Positions 5,672-60,740 of a DNA stretch of 64,000 nucleotides are shown here, in pieces (the first letter of the stretch is position 1; the number at the start of each line of letters is the position of its first letter). The DNA is taken from IMG/VR virus record IMGVR_UViG_3300025011_000016; one strand, written 5' to 3'. The notes below the pieces were generated by a model that saw only the letters and a list, made by a program, of their open reading frames with translations, searched no databases and was not told the origin of the DNA. The position numbers were made by a program, and so were the translations under genes. This DNA is from a virus (Duplodnaviria; Caudoviricetes).

Positions 5672-6442
5672 ATGGAAAGGTGGTATTATATGTTATATAA
5701 TAGACATAACTACTTAAATAAGAATATTGAATTTCTAGTATCTAATGAGATAATTGAATATGATATGCAATCGGCAGGTTTCAATATATTAAAGTATTAT
5801 AAATTAGTTAGTGATGATAAATTAAATTTTTTAGAATCTCTTGGTAAGAAAGAAAGACATGTTCAAATCGGATTGTATCAAAGGGCTGATAAAGTATTAG
5901 CTAGACAACTTAATGACAAATTTATTGAAACACGTAAATGGTTCTTTGAACAAAATGAGTTAATTGATGAAGATATTTTATCTATAAAGAAAGATGCAGT
6001 CATTACTTTCAAACGATGTTTAGTAACAGAACTAGATAATATTAAGTTTATTGAAAAGAATATATATACATCATATTACTATTTAAATAAATTGGAATTT
6101 TATTATAACAATAATGTCATTCATGTCAAAGGTATTAATGATGATTTGTTGAAATTACATTCAGAGTATATGCTAGACTTTTTACATATGTTTTTTCGAA
6201 TGAATGAAACTATTAAGGTTAAAAAGATCATTGAGTATTTAAAAGAGTTTTCACATTATTATAAAAATAGACATCTTGAAATTGGTTATTATAGAGAGTT
6301 GAATAAACAATCATTATTTAAATTAAATGATAGTCTATTTAATTCCCCATTAGGAATACGTGATATTGGTGACGTTGGTGAGATAAATATAGATTATAAT
6401 TATCTAAATTATCTTATTCCTTTGATCGGCATATTAATTTAA
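5672..6442 (+). CDS. small family-B DNA polymerase palm-like protein
   Basis: EYDMQSAGF (motif A-like) and LSIKKDAV (motif C-like). Confidence 0.45.
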   Translation: MERWYYMLYNRHNYLNKNIEFLVSNEIIEYDMQSAGFNILKYYKLVSDDKLNFLESLGKKERHVQIGLYQRADKVLARQLNDKFIETRKWFFEQNELIDEDILSIKKDAVITFKRCLVTELDNIKFIEKNIYTSYYYLNKLEFYYNNNVIHVKGINDDLLKLHSEYMLDFLHMFFRMNETIKVKKIIEYLKEFSHYYKNRHLEIGYYRELNKQSLFKLNDSLFNSPLGIRDIGDVGEINIDYNYLNYLIPLIGILI

Positions 6443-6844: not shown

Positions 6845-7493
6845 TATACTTCCCCCATCTTTTAATGTTTTCTTTTAATTCCAATACGTTTTTATCAAAA
6901 CTATCATATTTTTCTGAGGCTTCGATATATTTATTAATTTTACTAATGTGTTCCTTATGAAGTCCTTTCTTATATTTTTTAATAAATGAATTTAAATCTC
7001 CAAATGCTTGACGGAGATTAATAAATATATTATTAATATGAACTTGTTGATGTACAGTTTTAGTTAACATAACTACTTGGATTAAGTTATTGAAATGTTC
7101 TTCAAGGATAATATCAGCAACTATATAACTATTAATTCTTCTATTGTTGAATATTAGATAATCAATTATTATGGTTACATAGTCAAATAATGTTAAAATT
7201 GGTCCGTGGTGCATCTCAATGTCTACTTCATCATCGTCAGTAATATTAGATAACACTTGACAAGTATTTAAACCAATATCTTTTTTTAGGTATTTGATAT
7301 ATCCAGAATAAAAGGTTGATGTTCTAATAAGTTTCTCAGTTGCTTTTACAAAAGATACAAAATTATCAATATCAGCAAAATATGTGCTATTTTTATAAAA
7401 AGGGAGTTCATATGACGCACTATTAGAATCAATTATAGGGAATTTGTCTTTTTTAAACTCTATGCCTGGTATAATATTCATAAATTTCATCAC
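6837..7493 (-). CDS. hypothetical protein, possible HNH-like fold
   Basis: CQV...EMHH...HQQVH pattern; AACA-N6-TA motif upstream. Confidence 0.5.
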   Translation of the reverse strand: MMKFMNIIPGIEFKKDKFPIIDSNSASYELPFYKNSTYFADIDNFVSFVKATEKLIRTSTFYSGYIKYLKKDIGLNTCQVLSNITDDDEVDIEMHHGPILTLFDYVTIIIDYLIFNNRRINSYIVADIILEEHFNNLIQVVMLTKTVHQQVHINNIFINLRQAFGDLNSFIKKYKKGLHKEHISKINKYIEASEKYDSFDKNVLELKENIKRWGKYSE

Positions 7494-7565
7494 TCTCTTT
7501 CATTCTAATTTTGTACTACATTATAGTAATGTTGAATATTTGAAAAGGGAAGGTGATGATAGTAT

Positions 7566-41792: not shown

Positions 41793-44615
41793 ATGAAAAT
41801 TGTACCTAATAAACAACAAAAGAAAGCTGTTATTGAATCAGTGAAATGGTTAAAGAGTGGTTATAAACAAGTCTTTGAAATATCAGGTCCTCCAGGATCA
41901 GGTAAAACCTTTATAGTTTATTTAATACGAAAGGCAATGAAGCTAAATCCCTTGGATGTTCTATTTATGGCATATGTAGGAAAAGCTACAATGGCTTTGA
42001 CATTACAAGGTAATAATGCAAAGACAATGCATAGTTCTATTTATGATAGGGTTGATTTACCTAAGATGGATGAGAATGGTAAGTTTATTTTAAAAAATGG
42101 TAGAATACTTACAACTCCTGGTTTTGTTAAGAAAAAATCTTTACCTGATAATATAAAACTTATAGTGGTGGACGAAGGTTCTATGATTAATGAAAAATAC
42201 GCTTTAGATATTTTAAGCTTCAAGTTACCAGTTTTAGTGCTCGGGGACTTAAATCAGCTTTTTCCTATCTTTGGGAAACCTTATTTCTTAAGACAACCTG
42301 ATATTATATTAACAGAAATTATGAGACAGGCTAAAGATGATCCTATTATTCATTTAAGTCAAAAGGCAATTAATGGTGAAATTATTGAGATAGGAAAATA
42401 TGGTGATAGATGTTTTGTTATTAATAAAGAAGATATCACAGACAATATGCTTACAAAAACAGATATCGTTATTTGTGGTAAAAATAAGACACGGGATCAT
42501 ATAAATAAATATGTTAGAGAAGAAATATATAAAATAGACAAGCCTTATCCAGTAAAAGGTGAGAAATTAATATGTAGACAAAATAATTGGGATATGTCTG
42601 TCGATGAAGGTAAAATATTCTTAGTTAATGGTCTTGTAGGTTACGTTGAAGAAACACATTTAGACACTTATAATAAAAGATCTTTATGTATTGATTTTAG
42701 GCCTGAGTTTTTAAAAGAAACTTGTTTTGAAAGAGTAGCAATTGATTCTTTTATGAGTCACGTTGCATAGTAATATGCAATTGCAACTACTTTAATTGCG
42801 GGAAACTCCTTAGAACTTTATCTACTAATGTAACATGATAAAGATTGGACAATCTGCAGCCAATGATCTATTCATAATAGATTTAGGTCCAACGACTAGA
42901 ATGGGAAAGTTCGTAGGGCTCAAGTGAGTGGGTGAGACTCCCTTAAATCGAAATGGGTGGCCCCATTATAATAATTAGTATAATGGGTGAAGATATAGTC
43001 TGTGCTTTAAGGAAACTTAGAGAATAACTAACCGTAAGTCTTAATAACTATTCTGTATATAATTATATTATACAGTTAACAAATAATATAAGAACGGGGG
43101 TGATATAAAATGATTAAGACTTTTAAAACAAGAATACGACCGAATAAAGAACAAGAGGTATATTTAAATAAGTGCTTTGGGTATAGAAGGTTTATATATA
43201 ATAATGCGTTAGAATACTTTAATACTCTTTTAAAATATAATAATAATGTTATTGATAAGGATTTAAAGAAGTTCTTTGATAAATTTGATTATATTACTCA
43301 TATATATTCTAAGAAAGAAAAGGGACCGGGATTTGAATGGACTAAAGAATATAATAAGTCCATAAAGAATGAAGTGGCTAGTGATGTTAACTTAGCTGTT
43401 AATAGATTTTTTAAAGATATTAAAAATAAGAAGCGTTGTAAACTGCATTTTAAAAGAAAGGTTCATGGAAATGGATCGTTTAGAATATATAGTAAGCATA
43501 AAACTAATGTTATGATTCTTGATATGAAATTATTCTCTTTTATTATTAATAGAGAATTTGGTCATATGTCATTAAAAACATATGAGGACATAAGTTTCTT
43601 ATATCATCATGATATAAAAACAATGACTATTAGTATGAAGAATTTTAAATATTATGTCTCATTTACTTATGAAATAGATGTTCCAAAGCATAAGCATGAG
43701 AAAGATACCATAGGTATAGATTTAGGGATACATAATCCGGTAGTTTGTTTTGATGGAAAAGATATCATAAATCCTAAATTTCCGAAAGGAATTATTAAGA
43801 AACTAGAGAAGAGAGCCGATAAATTTTCAACGATAGTTTCTAAGAAGAAATATGATAAATGTAATCCATCAAAGAACTATATAAAAGCGAGAACCAAGCT
43901 TAATTATATTCATGGTAAGATAGTGAATATTAGAATGGATTATATTCAGAAGGTTTCAACCTTCTTAACTAAGACTTATAGAAATATCGTAGTTGATGAA
44001 TTTAGTTTTAAAGAATTACTAACAGAGTCTGATGGTATTAAACGTATTAATAGAGGTATACATAGAGTAGGTGCCTTTACGTTTATGCAAGTGTTAAAAT
44101 ATAAATGTCACTTTTACGGCAGTGAATATATTTTAGCCGAACCTAATAGTACCATTACATGCTCTGAATGTAATCATAAACTTAAAACTAAGTTGAAGTT
44201 ATCCCAAAGAGTCTTTAATTGTCCTGATTGTGGATATATAGATGATAGGGATAATAATGCGGCTATTAATATTTATAAGTCATATAAGAATCTTTATTAA
44301 CTAACGTAAATAGAGATTTCGCCGTTGGTCGGACGGTTTAAAGAACCTTGACGGTTAAGTTATTGTGGTATCTAACGAATACTACTAACACGACAGTATA
44401 AGCATTTATTTACACCATATGAACAGAGAGATAATAAACGTAGCTATTATAATAAATTTGAATTTGCCAACGCAATAAGCGTTCATTTATCACAAGGATC
44501 ACAATATAATACAGTTTTAATATATAATGAAAGAATGGGAGATAAAGAGTATTATAAGAAATGGTTATATACAGCAATATCGAGAGCGGTATCCGGATTA
44601 GTATTGGCCGTTTAA
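41793..44615 (+). CDS. RecD/Dda-like SF1B helicase; exons 41793-42746 and 44397-44615, about 390 aa
   Basis: GPPGSGKT, VVDEGSMI, LGDLNQL, LTEIMRQ; exon 2 supplies FANAISVHLSQGSQY and LYTAISRA. Confidence 0.9.
43110..44300 (+). CDS. tnpB: TnpB RNA-guided endonuclease (IS605 OrfB family)
   Basis: N-terminal KTFKTRIRPNKEQ HTH; RuvC GIDLG, VVDEF, DRDNNAAINI; CSEC...CPDC Zn finger. Confidence 0.93.
   Translation: MIKTFKTRIRPNKEQEVYLNKCFGYRRFIYNNALEYFNTLLKYNNNVIDKDLKKFFDKFDYITHIYSKKEKGPGFEWTKEYNKSIKNEVASDVNLAVNRFFKDIKNKKRCKLHFKRKVHGNGSFRIYSKHKTNVMILDMKLFSFIINREFGHMSLKTYEDISFLYHHDIKTMTISMKNFKYYVSFTYEIDVPKHKHEKDTIGIDLGIHNPVVCFDGKDIINPKFPKGIIKKLEKRADKFSTIVSKKKYDKCNPSKNYIKARTKLNYIHGKIVNIRMDYIQKVSTFLTKTYRNIVVDEFSFKELLTESDGIKRINRGIHRVGAFTFMQVLKYKCHFYGSEYILAEPNSTITCSECNHKLKTKLKLSQRVFNCPDCGYIDDRDNNAAINIYKSYKNLY
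44300..44396 (+). ncRNA. putative omegaRNA scaffold / IS605 right end (5' limit uncertain, may extend into tnpB)
   Basis: Nearly identical block at 56285-56381; hairpins GCCGUU/GACGGU and GUGGUAU/AUACUAC. Confidence 0.65.
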
Positions 44616-44646
44616 TACATAATATTATTTGAAAGGAGTTAGTATA

Positions 44647-44799
44647 ATGCAACCACCTAAGGTATTAACAGACTTAATGAAACCATTAACTGAGCAGAAC
44701 AATAGATTAATATCTGAAACTCTTACTGATAAGATCAATAGAGTTAAATCAAAGTTTAATTTATATCACGGTAAAGGTAAAAAGAAACGACGTAAATAA
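44647..44799 (+). CDS. small basic hypothetical protein (50 aa)
   Basis: Read manually; AAGGAG upstream. Confidence 0.55.
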   Translation: MQPPKVLTDLMKPLTEQNNRLISETLTDKINRVKSKFNLYHGKGKKKRRK

Positions 44800-45898: not shown

Positions 45899-48800
45899 AT
45901 GGCTAAATTTACAGATGATCAAATAGAACACATAGAAAGTGACATAGAGAAGATTCAGACTAAGCCTAAATATAATTGGGCTATTATATAGTGATATATA
46001 ATATAAACTTTTTTAATTGACGGAAACTTCCTTAGAGTCTAAACTACTAAATTGATATTTTAGTATATTGATGGCTGAGTGTAATTAACTCAGGTATAGT
46101 AATAATGTTTAGGATTGGATAATCCGCATCCAAGTCTCTTATAATAAGAGAAAGGTTCAACGACTAAATGTAGAGCTCAAGTGAGTGGGTGGAAATCCCT
46201 TAAATCGAAATGGAAAGCATCTTTAATAAAAGATGATGATATAGTCTTATATCCTAATGAAAATTAGGGAAGTTCATAATAGAACTGCACAGCTCAGCAA
46301 ACTGTGTGAAATAATGAATATGTACGTCAGCTATTTAGCACACCTAGGCGCATTACATTTATCTAAAGAGGTAATAAATAATTCTATAGATGAATGTATT
46401 AATCAAAATTCACCAGCTAACGAAATTAATATATATTTAGATGAAGGTGAGAATACTTTACTAGTTGCTGATAATGGTAGAGGAATAGCTTTCGATAAAA
46501 TGGAAATTGTGTGCACTAAATTACAAGCAGGTAGTAAGTTTACCAGAGAGGGTAGTGGTGGAGCTTCTGCTGGAGAAAACGGGTGTGGCATTACGGCCGT
46601 GAATTCGCTGTCGGAACACTTTGAGATAATCTCAACTCGTTATGGTGAAAGGGCTATAATTGAATTTGAATCTGGTAAGTTGGTCAGGTCACCAGTAATT
46701 AAAAAAATCGGTGATAAAACTAAACACGGTACTACAGTAAAATTTAAACCCAATCCATTTTACATGGGTGACGATTGTGATATCCCAACAGATTTATTGA
46801 TTGAATGGATTGAAAAAATAGTTTATTTAATGCCATCAAATATAGAAATATCACTAAGTGTCTCCAGAAAAGGTAAAGAATCTGCAATAAATAAAAAGTA
46901 TCGTAATAAAAATGGTTTAAAGGACTATATTTTGAAATTGTGTAAAAAGCCTATTTTAGATCCAATTCATTTTATGAAATCTTTAAAAATTAAAGAATTT
47001 GATAAAGGTAGAGAGATCGAAAGATTCATTGGATTAGAAACAGCTTTTACTTACAATTCAAATAGTATGGAACCTATTATTGAATCATTTTGTAATTTTG
47101 TGGTCACTGTTGAAGGGGGTATTCACAACGATGCTGTTAAACAAGGTGTTGTCCAATTCTTAGTTAGGAAAACTAAGGAGGGTTTATCTGATAAAGAATC
47201 GAAAAATATTGATATACTACCTATAGACGCTACTCAAGGATTAGTGTTGACATTATACTTAAGTACCGATATGAATATGATGTTTGCATCACAAACGAAA
47301 GAAAAACTTTCTAATAATGCTTTCTTCAAACCACTCAGAAACATGACATTTAATTCATTGGATGAATACTTTAAAAAAGAAGTTAATGATTTAAAGAAGA
47401 TAACAAGTTTTATTAAGACTAATGCTAAAGCAAGAATTGAATCAAACAAAGCTAGAAATGCTGTTATTAAAGGTGAAACTACTTCATTCGAAGAACACAA
47501 AATGAAGAATTTCTCTCCTGCAAATAATTTAGGGAATGATTACAGAGAGTTATTTGTTATAGAAGGTAAATTAGATTGCCTTATTTTCTTTAATTGACGG
47601 GAAACTCCTTAGAACTTCTTAATTGAAGATTGGACAATCCGCAGCCAAGTCTCTTTATATAAGAGAAAGGTTCAACGACTAGAGTATGTAAGCTCGTAGG
47701 TTTATTTATAATCCGAAATGGGAAAACAATAGATTTATTCTATTGAAGAGATAGTCTAATATCCTAATTAACATTAGGGAAGTTCATAAGAGAACTGTAT
47801 AGAGTTATAATCTATATGAATGATTGGATTCAGCAAAGGGTAGTGCAAGGTTAGGTAGGGATACGGATACTCAGGCATTATTTGCAATGCGAGGAGTTCC
47901 ACTTAATAGTTTTAATCTAAAGTTAGATAAAGTTTTATTGAATGATGAATTTAGGGATTTAACTAAAGTATTAAAATGTAATATCGGTGAACGATTTGAT
48001 ATTACAAAACTAAATTATAAAAAAATAATCATACTTACGGATGCGGATTAATTCATAGTCCCATTATGTAGTGATATATAATGTAAACTTCTTTAATTGA
48101 CGGGAAACTCCTTAGAACTTCTTAATTGAAGATTGGACAATCCGCAGCCAAGTCTCTTTATATAAGAGAAAGGTCCAACGACTAATAGTAGGGCTCAAGT
48201 GAGTGGGGTAATAACACCCTTTAAATCGAAAATAGAGGCATCTTTTATAAGATGATGATATAGTCTACACTTTATTGAAAGATAAAGAAAGATAGCATCT
48301 TTACATTATCTAACGAATAATGTTAATATGAATGGATTGATGGTTTGAGAATAGCCTCACTAATTTGTGTATTCTTCTTATGTCATATGCCAGAGATAAT
48401 TAAGCAAGGATATTTATATAAATCAGTATCACCACTATATTTATTAAATGATACTAAGGGTCATTTTATTATTGATAAAAAAGAGTATGTATCAGTTTTT
48501 GAAAAAGCTGTTAGAAATAACATTAAAGTTATTGATCCAGAAACTAATATTGTTTATACTAATAATGAGATGAAAGAGTTACTATTAAAGAATAGGGGAT
48601 ATTTAGAGGAGTTATACCGAGTTAGTAATCATTTTGCAGTTAATCCTTTTATCATTGAATACATCACCATATATGGGGATCAATCAAATTTCATAAATAA
48701 AATGAAAAAGAAATTCCCTGAGTTAACACTTGATGAAGAAAATGTTTTATCTGGTATATATGAAGGAAAATATCAGATTATTATATTGGATAAAATATTC

Positions 48801-55790: not shown

Positions 55791-56381
55791 TCATATTGAG
55801 TCTCGTTGCATAGTAATATGTAATTGTAACTACTTTAATTGCGGGAAACTCCTTAGTGCTTAAAACACTTTTAAAGTAACAAAGTTTAAGATTGGACAAT
55901 CCGCAGCCAAAGTTATTATTTAATAACGAGGCTCAACGACTATCCCAATGGTACTAAAATGTACATTAGGAGTAGGGCTCAAGTGAGTGGGTGAGATTCC
56001 CTTAAATCGAAAAGGGTAGCCCCATTATTATAATGGGTGAAGATATAGTCTGTGCTTTAAGGAGACTTAGAGATATAACTTAACCGTAAGTAAGTCTTAA
56101 TAATTCATTCTTAATAAGATATTATTATAGTTATAACAAATAATATAAGAAGGGGGTGACGATAAATGTTTAAAACTTTTAAATACATCTGACTAAAAAA
56201 GCTATGTATTGACACGAAACTTATAAATAATGGCGATAACCAAGCCTATTAATAATATTTATAAGTTGTAAAAATCTTTATTAACTAGCGTAAATAGAGA
56301 TTTCGCCGTTGGTCGGACGGTTTAAAGAACCTTGACGGTTAAGTTATAAGTGGTATCTAACTAATACTACTAACACGACAG
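55791..56381 (+). mobile_element. non-autonomous IStron-like group I intron (591 nt, tnpB deleted) between the SD and start codon
   Basis: 5' end, core and 3' end are homologous to 42747-44396; residual tnpB ends (ATGTTTAAAACTTTTAAA ... AATATTTATAAG...AATCTTTATTAA). Confidence 0.88.
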
Positions 56382-56385
56382 GAAT

Positions 56386-58063
56386 ATGTCTATTACTAAA
56401 CAGGCTAGAAAACAAATGGAATTATTAATTTATTCAGTATTTACAGCTTTAGATCCAACTGGTTCTAATACTGCTAAATATAAAGAATTATTTGGTAAAA
56501 TGAATGATACTCAATTTGATAAATTCTTCAAAGATTTCTTTAAAGAGGAAGATGAGTATCTTATATTAGACGTTATTGATTATGAGTTAAATCTTCAAAT
56601 GGAAGATGTAGAAAGAGCTGCAAAGATTCTTGATGTACCTTTATTCGAAAAAGTTGCAATGCCATTTATTAACAACAATACAGAAAATCCTGTTGTTACT
56701 CAATATGAAGTTCCGGTTGGTTACATTAACTTGAAACGGGTTCAACAAATATTAGCTAAAAAAAATACTACATCTACAGAAATATCAACACGTTCTGCTA
56801 TAACAGGACAAGTTGTTGGTAAGGATAAAAATGCCAGAGATTCAGATCAGGAGAATTTTGCTCTTGTCACTTTAAATGCTACGAACACATTACGTGAGCT
56901 TTTGGGTTATGTTGCTTAGCCCCTATATACGGTAACGTATATAGCAAACTTCTTTAATTGCAGGAAATTCCTTAGAGCTTATTATATGAAGATTGGATAA
57001 TCTGCATCATATTTTCTAATGATTAAAATATTTTCTTACTAATAAATATACAATATTTTAAAGGATGTGAATTATAAAAATGTATATAGTCATTCGTAAA
57101 GATAGAGAAATATTTAAACTTGTAACATATCCTAAAGTCAAACCTGATACTTATGAAGTTAGTAATTATGGTAATATTAGAAATTTAAAAACTGGCAAAT
57201 TAGTAAAATTATTTCCCGATACAAAAGGTTATCCTTTTGCAAATCTTATGTATAAAAAATCCATTGCTCGTAGTGTTAATATCCATAGGTTGGTAGCGTG
57301 GGAATTTGTAGATGGATATGATATAGATCGAGGGAGAACTAATGTTAATCATCTGGACAGCGATCCTACTAATAATTATTATGAAAACCTTGAATGGGTT
57401 ACAACTAAAGAAAATAATCAACATGGTATTAAACATGGTAAGATTAGATTTGGTGCAGGTGGTAGTCTAAATTATAAAGCTAGATATAATGAAGAATTTT
57501 GTTCGTAAACTATGTCCATACATTGAAAAAGGACTCACTCAAATGGAAATAATGCATATTTACGGTTATAAAACAAGAAAAGAAAATAAAAGTTTATATT
57601 CTTTAATAGATGGAATTTACTGGGGTGTGTGGAGAGAGGTATCAAAAGAATTTAATATTAATATAAAACAAGAAAAATGTTCAACGACTATCCTTTAGAT
57701 GTGAAATTCATCATTAGGAGTAGGGCCTAAGTAGGTGGGTGAGACTCCCTTAAATCGAAATAAGAAGCATCTTATATAAGATGATGATATAGTCTTGTAT
57801 CCTATATAACTATAGGGAAGTTCATAAGAGAACTGCATAGATTAACGAACTATGTGAAAGTATCGCCCAGGAGTGATGACCTTGTGATGAAAAATCAAAT
57901 GTATGCTAGTATAGCTCAAAAAGGATATGTATCACTAGATGAACTACCGAACGATGTTGCCAATAAAACAACGCTGAATACAATTGATGTGCATCTTATT
58001 GGCTTAGGTATTAAAAGCGATTTAATCACTCAAGGATTATTAGTTAGAAAGACTATGAAATAA
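56386..58063 (+). CDS. rpoB: RNA polymerase beta-like C-terminal subunit; exons 56386-56907 and 57866-58063, about 239 aa
   Basis: VPVGYINLKRVQQ, TGQVVG, TLRELLG|PRSDD match the bacterial beta C-terminus (VGYMY.LKL, TLQEMLTVKSDD). Confidence 0.82.
56908..57865 (+). mobile_element. group I intron (958 nt) carrying an HNH homing endonuclease gene
   Basis: P1 GGGU/GCCC; P/Q before and R/S after the ORF; 3' G at 57865. Confidence 0.9.
57080..57698 (+). pseudogene. NUMOD4-HNH homing endonuclease, frameshifted near 57497-57500
   Basis: YEVSNYGNIR, IHRLVA..F, VNHLD....NN...NLEW; the C-terminal part continues in another frame after a TTTT run. Confidence 0.75.
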
Positions 58064-59594: not shown

Positions 59595-60740
59595 GTGATA
59601 ATATTGCTAAAGTTATGTATTATTGGATTGGGTAATTGTGGTAATCAAATCGCTGAATTAGCAAAGAAAGAGAAGAATATTCCGGGTATCGCTATTAATA
59701 GTTCTGAAAAAGATCTTACTACTATCAATACTGTTGATAAGATCCTAATAGGCGATATGATGGGTAGTGGTAAAGATCGGAATGAAGCTAAACGCTTCAT
59801 AACTCAAAATATTCAGTTGATACTTCAACAAGAAGTATTTAAAAAGCTGATAGAAGAAAGTAACGTGATATTCATAGCTTCTTCTACTAGTGGCGGAACT
59901 GGCTCTGGTATGACACCGATCTTAACTGAAATACTTACGAAAATTTACCATGGGAAAAGATTCGTTGTCATTCATGTTTATCCGGCAATTAGTGAGTCTG
60001 TTGCGGCTCAACAAAACTCACTGGACTATTTAAAAGAGTTGAGACAATTTATTCCCAATATTACCTATATGGCTTATGATAATCATCGTAGGTCAAATGA
60101 GCCGACTGACAGAATGATGACTGAAATCAACATGCAAGTGGTTAATGACATTTGTGTGATCCGTGGAGATTATCAATACTCAACTCAATATAGTTCAATT
60201 GATGAAAAGGATATGCTTAAGTTAATTGAAACTCCAGGCCGGTTGTTGATAACAACTGTAAATGGTTTAAAGGAAAAAGATCTTGATGAAAAATCTGTTG
60301 AGGATATCTTAATATTTGATATCAAGAACACTTCAGTAGCAGTGGAAATTGAGCGTGACCGACTTATAAAAAGAATAGGTCTGATCACGAACTTAAATGA
60401 TAAAATCCATAAAGCATTCAATACTAAGTTAATTATCTTCAAAGAATTTATCGGTGAGCCGGTAGAAGGATTCGAACATATCCATATCAATAAAGGCCCA
60501 GATGAATCTAATCAAATTATTGTAATAATGTCTGGCTTATCAGTTCCAGACGATCGTATTCAGAAAATGATTCAAAGGATTGAAGAAGTTCGATCGGAGT
60601 TAATGAAAGTTCAAGGATCATCTATCCTCGATTCCATAAAAACCGAGGATATTGATATATTACGAGAAAACTCTGGACGGTTTGATCCAGAGAGTCAAAT
60701 TAACCTGACTGACGTTATGGCAAAATATCTTAAGCGTTAA
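59595..60740 (+). CDS. tubulin/FtsZ-family GTPase (PhuZ/TubZ-like)
   Basis: IGLGNCGNQIA, GSGKD, STSGGTGSG signature. Confidence 0.9.
   Translation: MIILLKLCIIGLGNCGNQIAELAKKEKNIPGIAINSSEKDLTTINTVDKILIGDMMGSGKDRNEAKRFITQNIQLILQQEVFKKLIEESNVIFIASSTSGGTGSGMTPILTEILTKIYHGKRFVVIHVYPAISESVAAQQNSLDYLKELRQFIPNITYMAYDNHRRSNEPTDRMMTEINMQVVNDICVIRGDYQYSTQYSSIDEKDMLKLIETPGRLLITTVNGLKEKDLDEKSVEDILIFDIKNTSVAVEIERDRLIKRIGLITNLNDKIHKAFNTKLIIFKEFIGEPVEGFEHIHINKGPDESNQIIVIMSGLSVPDDRIQKMIQRIEEVRSELMKVQGSSILDSIKTEDIDILRENSGRFDPESQINLTDVMAKYLKR

Follow-up and report, generated by a model that had tools for sequence, protein, structure and literature searches.

The window analysed here is a stretch of 64,000 nt from the minus strand of the 100,486-bp IMG/VR record IMGVR_UViG_3300025011_000016, to which CheckV assigns a completeness of 42% of about 240 kb. 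The record derives from an uncultured phage, 58% of whose genome lies outside it. Within the window, the gene for a RecD/PIF1-like helicase is interrupted by a 1650-nt element that combines a group I ribozyme core, a tnpB gene and a structured 3' RNA. We found that this element is a genuine, well-delimited member of the IStron family, and that related copies occupy other genes of the same phage and its relatives. The features of the helicase locus and of a second, tnpB-less copy in the window are as follows.

41793-42746, plus strand: helicase exon 1, 318 codons, RecD/PIF1-like with AAA_30 and AAA_19 domains, ending in ..GCA ATT GAT
42742-42746, plus strand: TTGAT, the final five exon bases and 5' strand of P1, with a U.G wobble at 42746; candidate target-adjacent motif (TAM)
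42747-44396, plus strand: complete IStron-like element, 1650 nt
42747-43022, plus strand: group I ribozyme core, P1 to P9 (RF00028, 80.8 bits)
42750-42754, plus strand: UUUAU, with a possible P10 pairing to exon-2 bases 2-6, read from the sequence
42755-42760, plus strand: internal guide sequence (IGS) GAGUCA, read in the same way
42763-42780, plus strand: P2 hairpin, also read in this way
43024-43035, plus strand: 5' strand of P9.1, a long-range inverted-repeat stem round tnpB, preceded by a GAAUAA motif
43110-44300, plus strand: tnpB, 396 aa, with RuvC motifs GIDLG, VDEF and DRDNNAA, two CxxC pairs and a GGGGGTG ribosome-binding site upstream
44290-44349, plus strand: SL2-SL4, a 60-nt block of three stem-loops, the best conserved part (93-100%); candidate core of the omegaRNA scaffold
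44351-44363, plus strand: 3' strand of P9.1, from the alignment of copies and the minimum-free-energy fold of the tnpB-less copy
44365-44385, plus strand: terminal hairpin P9.2, GUGGUAU / loop CUAACGA / AUACUAC, with compensatory changes in the ligase copy and in sister introns that lack an open reading frame (ORF)
44386-44396, plus strand: tail TAACACGACAG, its last base being the intron's terminal G, from the sequence and the alignment of copies
44397-44615, plus strand: helicase exon 2, 72 codons plus stop, UvrD_C_2; its first 16 nt (44397-44412) are the putative guide
55791-56381, plus strand: tnpB-deleted sister copy, 591 nt, with the core, a degenerate tnpB start, SL2-SL4, P9.1, P9.2 and the same tail

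An earlier note on this DNA, made from the letters alone, had described a group I core followed by a full-length tnpB at 42747-44396. These positions proved right to the base, as the core begins after the TTGAT that ends at 42746, tnpB is an intact 396-aa ORF, and the element ends at G 44396. A local Rfam scan matched RF00028 over 42738-43022 with 80.8 bits (E 2e-20). When the region 42500-44700 was compared with Rfam at E <= 1, only the group I model was found, and no omegaRNA-type family. The gathering-threshold scan of the whole window missed the helicase intron, though it listed 14 others; the cmscan intron counts given here are lower bounds, the Infernal filters having missed clear introns. 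The 5' splice site follows from P1, in which exon UGAU|UC is paired with the IGS GAGUCA: as the U.G wobble sits at 42746, the exon ends in ..AATTGAT, in agreement with the TTGAT end given in the note. Exon 2 matched UvrD_C_2 with E 2.6e-11. Joined to the 318 whole codons of exon 1, it yields a helicase that aligns gap-free across the junction with 11 uninterrupted homologues (~389 aa; ..AID|YKHLF versus ..ALD|YEYLF), which bears out the earlier claim that removal of the element restores the RecD-like frame. The group I ribozyme is thus predicted to span the element, and its excision to restore a co-linear RecD-like helicase.

The right boundary was defined by the comparison of copies and by metagenome assemblies. 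All copies share ..AACACGACAG, and similarity stops directly after this sequence, at G 44396. Loose contig ends lie exactly at 44396 in contigs of four metagenome runs, the summed contig depth of the element was 4-16 times that of its flanking exons in four DNA runs, and at least six distinct right flanks start exactly after ..CGACAG. Between the core and this end, P9 is followed by GAGAAUAAC, and the P9.1 stem (43024-43035 with 44351-44363) comprises 12-13 bp in all copies. As judged from this alignment, P9.1, of 13 bp, encloses tnpB and the structured 3' RNA in its loop, the place where ordinary phage introns have a homing-endonuclease gene. The P7-P9 region is 75-79% identical to introns of Twort-like and jumbo Staphylococcus phages, which is the only, and an indirect, hint that the intron may belong to subclass IA2.

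Two features of the 3' RNA bear on its folding. The hexamer ACGGUU is present at 44333-44338 and again at 44351-44356. Either hexamer could be the partner of AACC at 44344-44347, and the downstream one is also part of P9.1, where it faces 43024-43035; in these models, the splicing fold with P9.1 and the local SL4 scaffold fold look mutually exclusive. In addition, CGAC in the tail is complementary to GUCG of the SL3 loop, and a GUCG/CGAC pseudoknot is possible; the CGAC-type tail is without counterpart in the ORF-less sister introns.

The TnpB protein carries the Pfam domains HTH_OrfB_IS605, OrfB_IS605 and Cas12f1-like_TNB, and was matched by the ISDra2 TnpB structures at E 5e-26. In four diverged copies, the RuvC D, E and D residues and the zinc finger are invariant, and neither stops nor frameshifts were found. 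Between TnpB copies in different genes, dN/dS was 0.14-0.21 at dS 0.41-0.62, and this low ratio indicates that TnpB has been selected in each copy; we therefore regard the protein, from its sequence, as intact and under purifying selection throughout. The proteins of the family have 396-413 aa, the C-terminus of the helicase-copy TnpB being 14-17 residues shorter through a 1-nt change. They are at most 34% identical to any protein outside the family in a search of 5.8 billion proteins, and these compact TnpBs represent new nuclease sequences. Upstream of the closest outside TnpBs (those of Staphylococcus jumbo phage Machias, of a metagenomic contig of 242 kb, and of 80 bacterial loci at <= 32% identity), neither cmscan nor nhmmer detected a copy of this intron family, introns of other types being possible there. 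Scans of IMG/VR with TnpB peptides and a 24-nt scaffold word returned only the record itself, and a metagenome scan returned one 1-kb contig.

A second TnpB-bearing copy is located in the NAD-dependent DNA ligase gene of the same record, where it is cut by the contig end; its TnpB is 84% identical to that of the helicase copy. In related contigs of 248 kb the ligase copy is complete, and a third copy is located in a gene that weakly matches a terminase; two further right flanks were found on short contigs. The element thus occurs in the genes for helicase, ligase and probable terminase and in the 5' untranslated region of an RNA polymerase beta gene (the tnpB-less copy), besides the two further flanks. 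Among the aligned copies, similarity begins at the 5' splice site and ends exactly after ..CGACAG. Their 5' exons end in TTGAT, TAGAT, ATGAT or AGGAT, the common part being only xxGAT. P1 was found to covary with the exon in four copies, GAGUCA occurring with UGAU, and GAGUCU with AGAU or GGAU; this change of the IGS together with the fourth-last exon base is what a working P1 requires. A P10 pairing of 5 or 6 bp, with exon-2 bases 2-6 or 2-7, is possible in two copies. cmscan reported no intron in contig L002 (intron at 1239-1541) or at the ligase copy in contig L007 (3608-3912). Since the latter was detected with E 2e-49 by a hidden Markov model built from the phage's own introns, its silence there represents a filter miss and not absence. 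In one further contig, L010 (1-3952), helicase exon 1 and the 5' part of the helicase element continue into the tnpB 3' part and right flank of another site, the tnpB similarity switching partway; the right flank lies inside a large gene of unknown function (phrog_18960). Either assembly produced a chimera here or two copies have truly recombined, and we drew on this contig only for its additional right flank.

The tnpB-less copy at 55791-56381 was found by BLAST of parts of the element against the record, its last ~130 nt being 94% identical. It lies between AAAGGAGGAT| and |GAATATG, that is, between a ribosome-binding site and a start codon, and the product of the downstream gene (56386-56919) matched an RNA polymerase beta PHROG. 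Since splicing would bring the Shine-Dalgarno sequence and the start codon together, translation of this RNA polymerase beta fragment gene should depend on it. In the minimum-free-energy fold of this copy, a long-range stem of 13-17 bp closes the tnpB region and is directly followed by the terminal hairpin. Having kept the candidate scaffold, the copy could borrow TnpB in trans.

Conservation along the element was uneven. Identity between copies was 78-89% in the ribozyme core, 76-84% in the spacer before tnpB and 88-96% in the last 47 nt, as compared with 93-100% for every pair in the 60-nt block at 44290-44349, where the helicase and tnpB-less copies are 98% identical; the tnpB 3' remnant of the tnpB-less copy has decayed to 62-64%. 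Because the block lies outside the catalytic core, within the P9.1 loop, and is non-coding in two copies, the simplest reading of these alignments is that it serves as a TnpB-binding scaffold. RNAalifold predicted five stem-loops (z -2.35) with compensatory changes in two pairs only, and no Rfam family was matched. As the conserved putative scaffold runs up to exon 2, the latter is most likely the guide. The putative 16-nt guides of the helicase and tnpB-less copies each occur once in the 100-kb record, behind their own CGACAG. We also considered a guide inside the intron, after tnpB or SL4, which would direct TnpB against tnpB-less introns. This arrangement is disfavoured, because the block after tnpB is the best conserved part and the 3' coding part of tnpB, which would have to act as scaffold in that case, has decayed in the tnpB-less copy.

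To what extent the ends of the element identify a transposon is qualified by ORF-less sister introns, located in contig L007 at 7201-7497 and in the window at 48039 to about 48335. These introns have a short P9.1, the CTAACGA-loop terminal hairpin, its stem fully compensated, and a tail that resembles the one of the TnpB copies and ends in TCAG or TATG; both follow ..GGAT|, and the 60-nt block is missing from them. Since the hairpin, the tail and GAT| are also present in introns of this kind, by themselves they prove neither a transposon right end nor a TAM, and the 'IS605-like right end' of the earlier note is weakened accordingly. Only tnpB itself, the 60-nt block, the long P9.1 and the GACAG tail set the TnpB copies apart. 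The phage introns may descend from an IStron that in most cases has lost tnpB, or a TnpB module may have been captured by a resident intron.

Searches for the other components of a mobile or homing system gave mixed results. Y1_Tnp and Resolvase (PF00239) stayed below cut-off throughout the 100-kb record, so that the earlier statement that tnpA is missing from the element and the window holds over this wider range as well. The only candidate Y1 transposase, an ORF of 256 aa at 5672-6442, was rejected, as it scored a sub-threshold 17.6 bits, matched phrog_21037 (unknown function) over its full length, and lacks an HUH motif. Of the phage functions that the note had named as available for repair, RecA was not recovered, PF00154 finding nothing in the 100-kb record; an SbcD-like gene is present only on the strength of a borderline Metallophos match (21.6 bits versus a cut-off of 21.5), and the assignment is correspondingly tentative. 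The helicase exon was found on 24 contigs, and the intron is present in all that extend far enough. The search for an empty site in related phage contigs, which the note had proposed, yielded only uninterrupted helicases of ~65% identity that mismatch the guide; their sites read ..TAGAT|TATGAGT.. and ..TAGAT|CATAATT.., and one of them comes from JGI sample Ga0209319, which also holds an IStron contig. The empty-site joint 42746>44397 was absent from the Logan contigs of four DNA runs, contigs being prone to drop rare variants. The Logan contigs did contain, at low depth, a joint 42590>44451 that has just 33 nt on one side and most likely comes from a divergent relative. No RNA run is among the sequencing runs listed for the sequence.

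The phage itself appears to be large, and because of its large relatives and its gene content the label 'jumbo phage' in the note is reasonable. Near-identical sequence is found on groundwater metagenome contigs of up to 272 kb, relatives have 248-272 kb, and genes for a PhuZ-like tubulin, topoisomerase II and RNA polymerase beta fragments are present in the window. The ORF at 59595-60740 matched the PhuZ tubulin PHROG with E 7e-12; this match and the split RNA polymerase genes point tentatively to a jumbo phage of the nucleus-forming type. The genome is rich in introns: 15 group I introns reach the Rfam threshold in the window, between 11911 and 56072 (the 14 of the whole-window scan plus the helicase one), and BLAST revealed more copies elsewhere in the record, at 66699-73207 when the numbering of the window strand is continued. 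These introns comprise at least two subfamilies with distinct 3' domains and exon ends ..CCCT| and ..GGAT|. An HNH-type ORF at 57080-57508 (..NHLDSDPTNN..ENLEW..) is flanked by partial intron-like matches at 56947-56980 and 57720-57761, and is probably the endonuclease gene of a classical intron within the RNA polymerase beta gene that also has the tnpB-less copy.

On balance, we favour, with some reserve, the interpretation that an IS200/IS605-like (group A) IStron without tnpA is lodged in an essential gene, and that, by analogy with characterised systems, it probably moves from phage to phage in co-infections by RNA-guided intron homing. Beyond the anatomy we infer every step of this account, cleavage and homing included, the omegaRNA and cleavage steps being modelled on ISDra2 TnpB and the Clostridium botulinum IStron. 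The element would splice out of the helicase transcript, and transcripts left unspliced would yield an omegaRNA, its scaffold formed by the last ~110 nt (possibly ~170 nt) of the intron and its guide by the first ~16 nt of exon 2. The loaded TnpB would then cleave DNA only where xxGAT is directly followed by exon 2, which is the arrangement in the helicase gene of a co-infecting relative without the intron. In the occupied allele the target is preceded by GACAG, which would protect it from self-cutting. Recombinational repair from the intron-bearing genome would copy the element into the cut site (homing), or the competitor would simply be damaged.

Several observations weigh against this interpretation. 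Covariation in the proposed scaffold is thin, as it amounts to the two compensatory pairs and the copies are too alike there, and gene conversion could be an alternative cause of the uniform 60-nt block. The GAT| flank and the CTAACGA-loop hairpin are common to the ORF-less sister introns and are explained by the ribozyme alone; GAT| may owe as much to P1 pairing as to a TAM, and the 5' flanks differ among copies in the bases before it. No intronless allele was found among close relatives, and in the nearest uninterrupted helicases (~65% protein identity) positions 4 and 7 of the 16-nt guide, in its TAM-proximal half, are mismatched. RecA was without a match in the 100-kb record, beyond which more than half of the genome lies. 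As to novelty, the idea is already in print, a 2026 review having proposed that tnpA-less IStrons could propagate by intron homing, also between co-infecting phages (PMC13565253).

Other explanations share part of this evidence. Homing and inter-phage warfare both depend on the same predicted cleavage step. In a nucleus-forming jumbo phage, an endonuclease encoded by an intron serves as a weapon against competitors, and TnpB-omegaRNA might likewise cut the essential genes of intronless competitors, the carrier gaining with or without copying of the element. The positions of the copies, in helicase, ligase, probable terminase and RNA polymerase genes, and the PhuZ-like tubulin encoded in the window would fit such a role; however, the co-occurring relatives that were examined mismatch the guide, and we regard a purely offensive function as unlikely. 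In a classical IStron cycle, a Y1 TnpA acting in trans, encoded in the unsequenced 58% of the genome or by the host, would have placed the copies and would still move them, and TnpB would only restore those excised. Such a cycle would account for multiple copies in unrelated genes, all after xxGAT, and for the group A-like architecture with its GAAUAA motif and inverted-repeat stem, and many accepted IStrons without ORF A have nonetheless spread (PMC4227781). However, the record offered nothing closer to a transposase than the weak match lacking HUH, the left hairpin (P2) is unlike the right one, the GAT| preference is common to ORF-less introns, and the copies are old paralogues (dS 0.4-0.6) rather than recent transpositions, all of which makes this cycle quite unlikely here.

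Two further possibilities leave DNA cleavage out of account. TnpB may have been recruited as an RNA-binding regulator of the splicing or expression of the interrupted genes, an idea suggested by the competition between TnpB/omegaRNA binding and splicing in the C. botulinum IStron (10.1101/2023.11.20.567912), by the use of the same bases in P9.1 and the local SL4 fold, which exclude each other, and by the copy placed between a ribosome-binding site and a start codon. The RuvC acidic residues and zinc finger, invariant in four copies, are not required for a purely RNA-binding role, and we consider it very improbable that this is the whole function. The loss of tnpB in one copy and the 1-nt change that shortens the helicase-copy C-terminus by 14-17 residues might instead mark tnpB as a decaying remnant, an inert passenger in a resident intron. 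In view of the low dN/dS, the open frames in four copies and the intact catalytic residues, this is extremely improbable. RNA-guided homing remains the account that we prefer.

An extension of RNA-guided homing would be a two-tier system, in which a few tnpB-bearing introns supply the nuclease and all copies with the scaffold block, tnpB-less ones included, supply their own exon-derived guides, so that a single pool of TnpB would be directed at the intronless alleles of several essential genes of rivals. We put this forward as a doubtful proposal. If true, the phage would carry a dispersed multi-guide array (helicase, ligase, terminase and RNA polymerase) that is homing drive and weapon at once, and whose guide updates itself whenever the intron reaches a new exon. 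Homing by TnpB-omegaRNA and its conflict with splicing have been published (PMC10055086; 10.1101/2023.11.20.567912; PMC13521648), RNA-guided homing by an IStron TnpB having been demonstrated, in E. coli assays, for bacterial elements alone. The present family offers natural test material for the homing expected of tnpA-less IStrons, with diverged, selected TnpBs, a near-invariant candidate scaffold and differing putative exon guides. Several selected paralogues and a natural tnpB-less copy that has kept this candidate scaffold are useful extras, and the copies reside in essential phage genes, where co-infection offers a drive its opportunity.

Phage group I introns with a homing-endonuclease gene in a peripheral loop, such as T4 td with I-TevI, are a functional parallel to the account that we prefer. 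They share with the helicase element a nuclease ORF in a peripheral loop of the intron, an essential phage gene as residence and the intronless allele of a co-infecting phage as the expected target. In the helicase element, by contrast, recognition would be RNA-guided and would follow the intron to a new exon automatically, and the nuclease is of the RuvC/TnpB type instead of GIY-YIG, HNH or LAGLIDADG. ISDra2 TnpB-omegaRNA (8exa, 8h1j, 8bf8) has the same domain order and catalytic residues (E 5e-26), the TAM TTGAT, and a guide taken from the right-end flank; ISDra2 differs in being a plain insertion sequence with TnpA, without a ribozyme, and with an unrelated omegaRNA sequence.

Among IStrons, the IS607-type CboIStron of C. 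botulinum follows the logic predicted for the phage element, its 3' splice site being the scaffold-guide junction, and it is the only IStron with measured TnpB-omegaRNA cleavage, TAM and splicing/guide-RNA conflict (10.1101/2023.11.20.567912, PMC13521648). It differs in its serine TnpA, TGGG TAM, G at the 5' splice site and membership of group B, and the phage element is known from sequence alone. ORF-B-only IStrons, ORF-less derivatives and IStrons on C. botulinum phage genomes have all been described (PMC4227781). Among the last, CbISt3 and CbISt4 of phages c-st and D-1873 are, unlike the present family, IS607-type single copies in temperate, plasmid-like prophages of a cultured host. The closest relationship is with the group A IStrons, represented by CdISt1/CdiIStron of Clostridioides difficile (Tourasse 2014, PMC4227781). 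These share the 5' group I intron, an IS200/IS605-type ORF B after P9 and a GAAUAA-type motif, an inverted-repeat stem enclosing the ORF, insertion after TTGAT with a U.G pair in P1, a 3' end in ..CAG, and multiple copies in unrelated genes with ORF-B-only and ORF-less derivatives. The phage copies differ in ending in ACAG (..CGACAG) instead of TCAG, which is found in one ORF-less sister intron, in their variable 5' flank, and in that no copy with ORF A was seen in the 100-kb, 42% complete record. Their TnpB is at most 34% identical to the other proteins found, their host is an uncultured jumbo phage, and the genes that they occupy serve replication, packaging and transcription.

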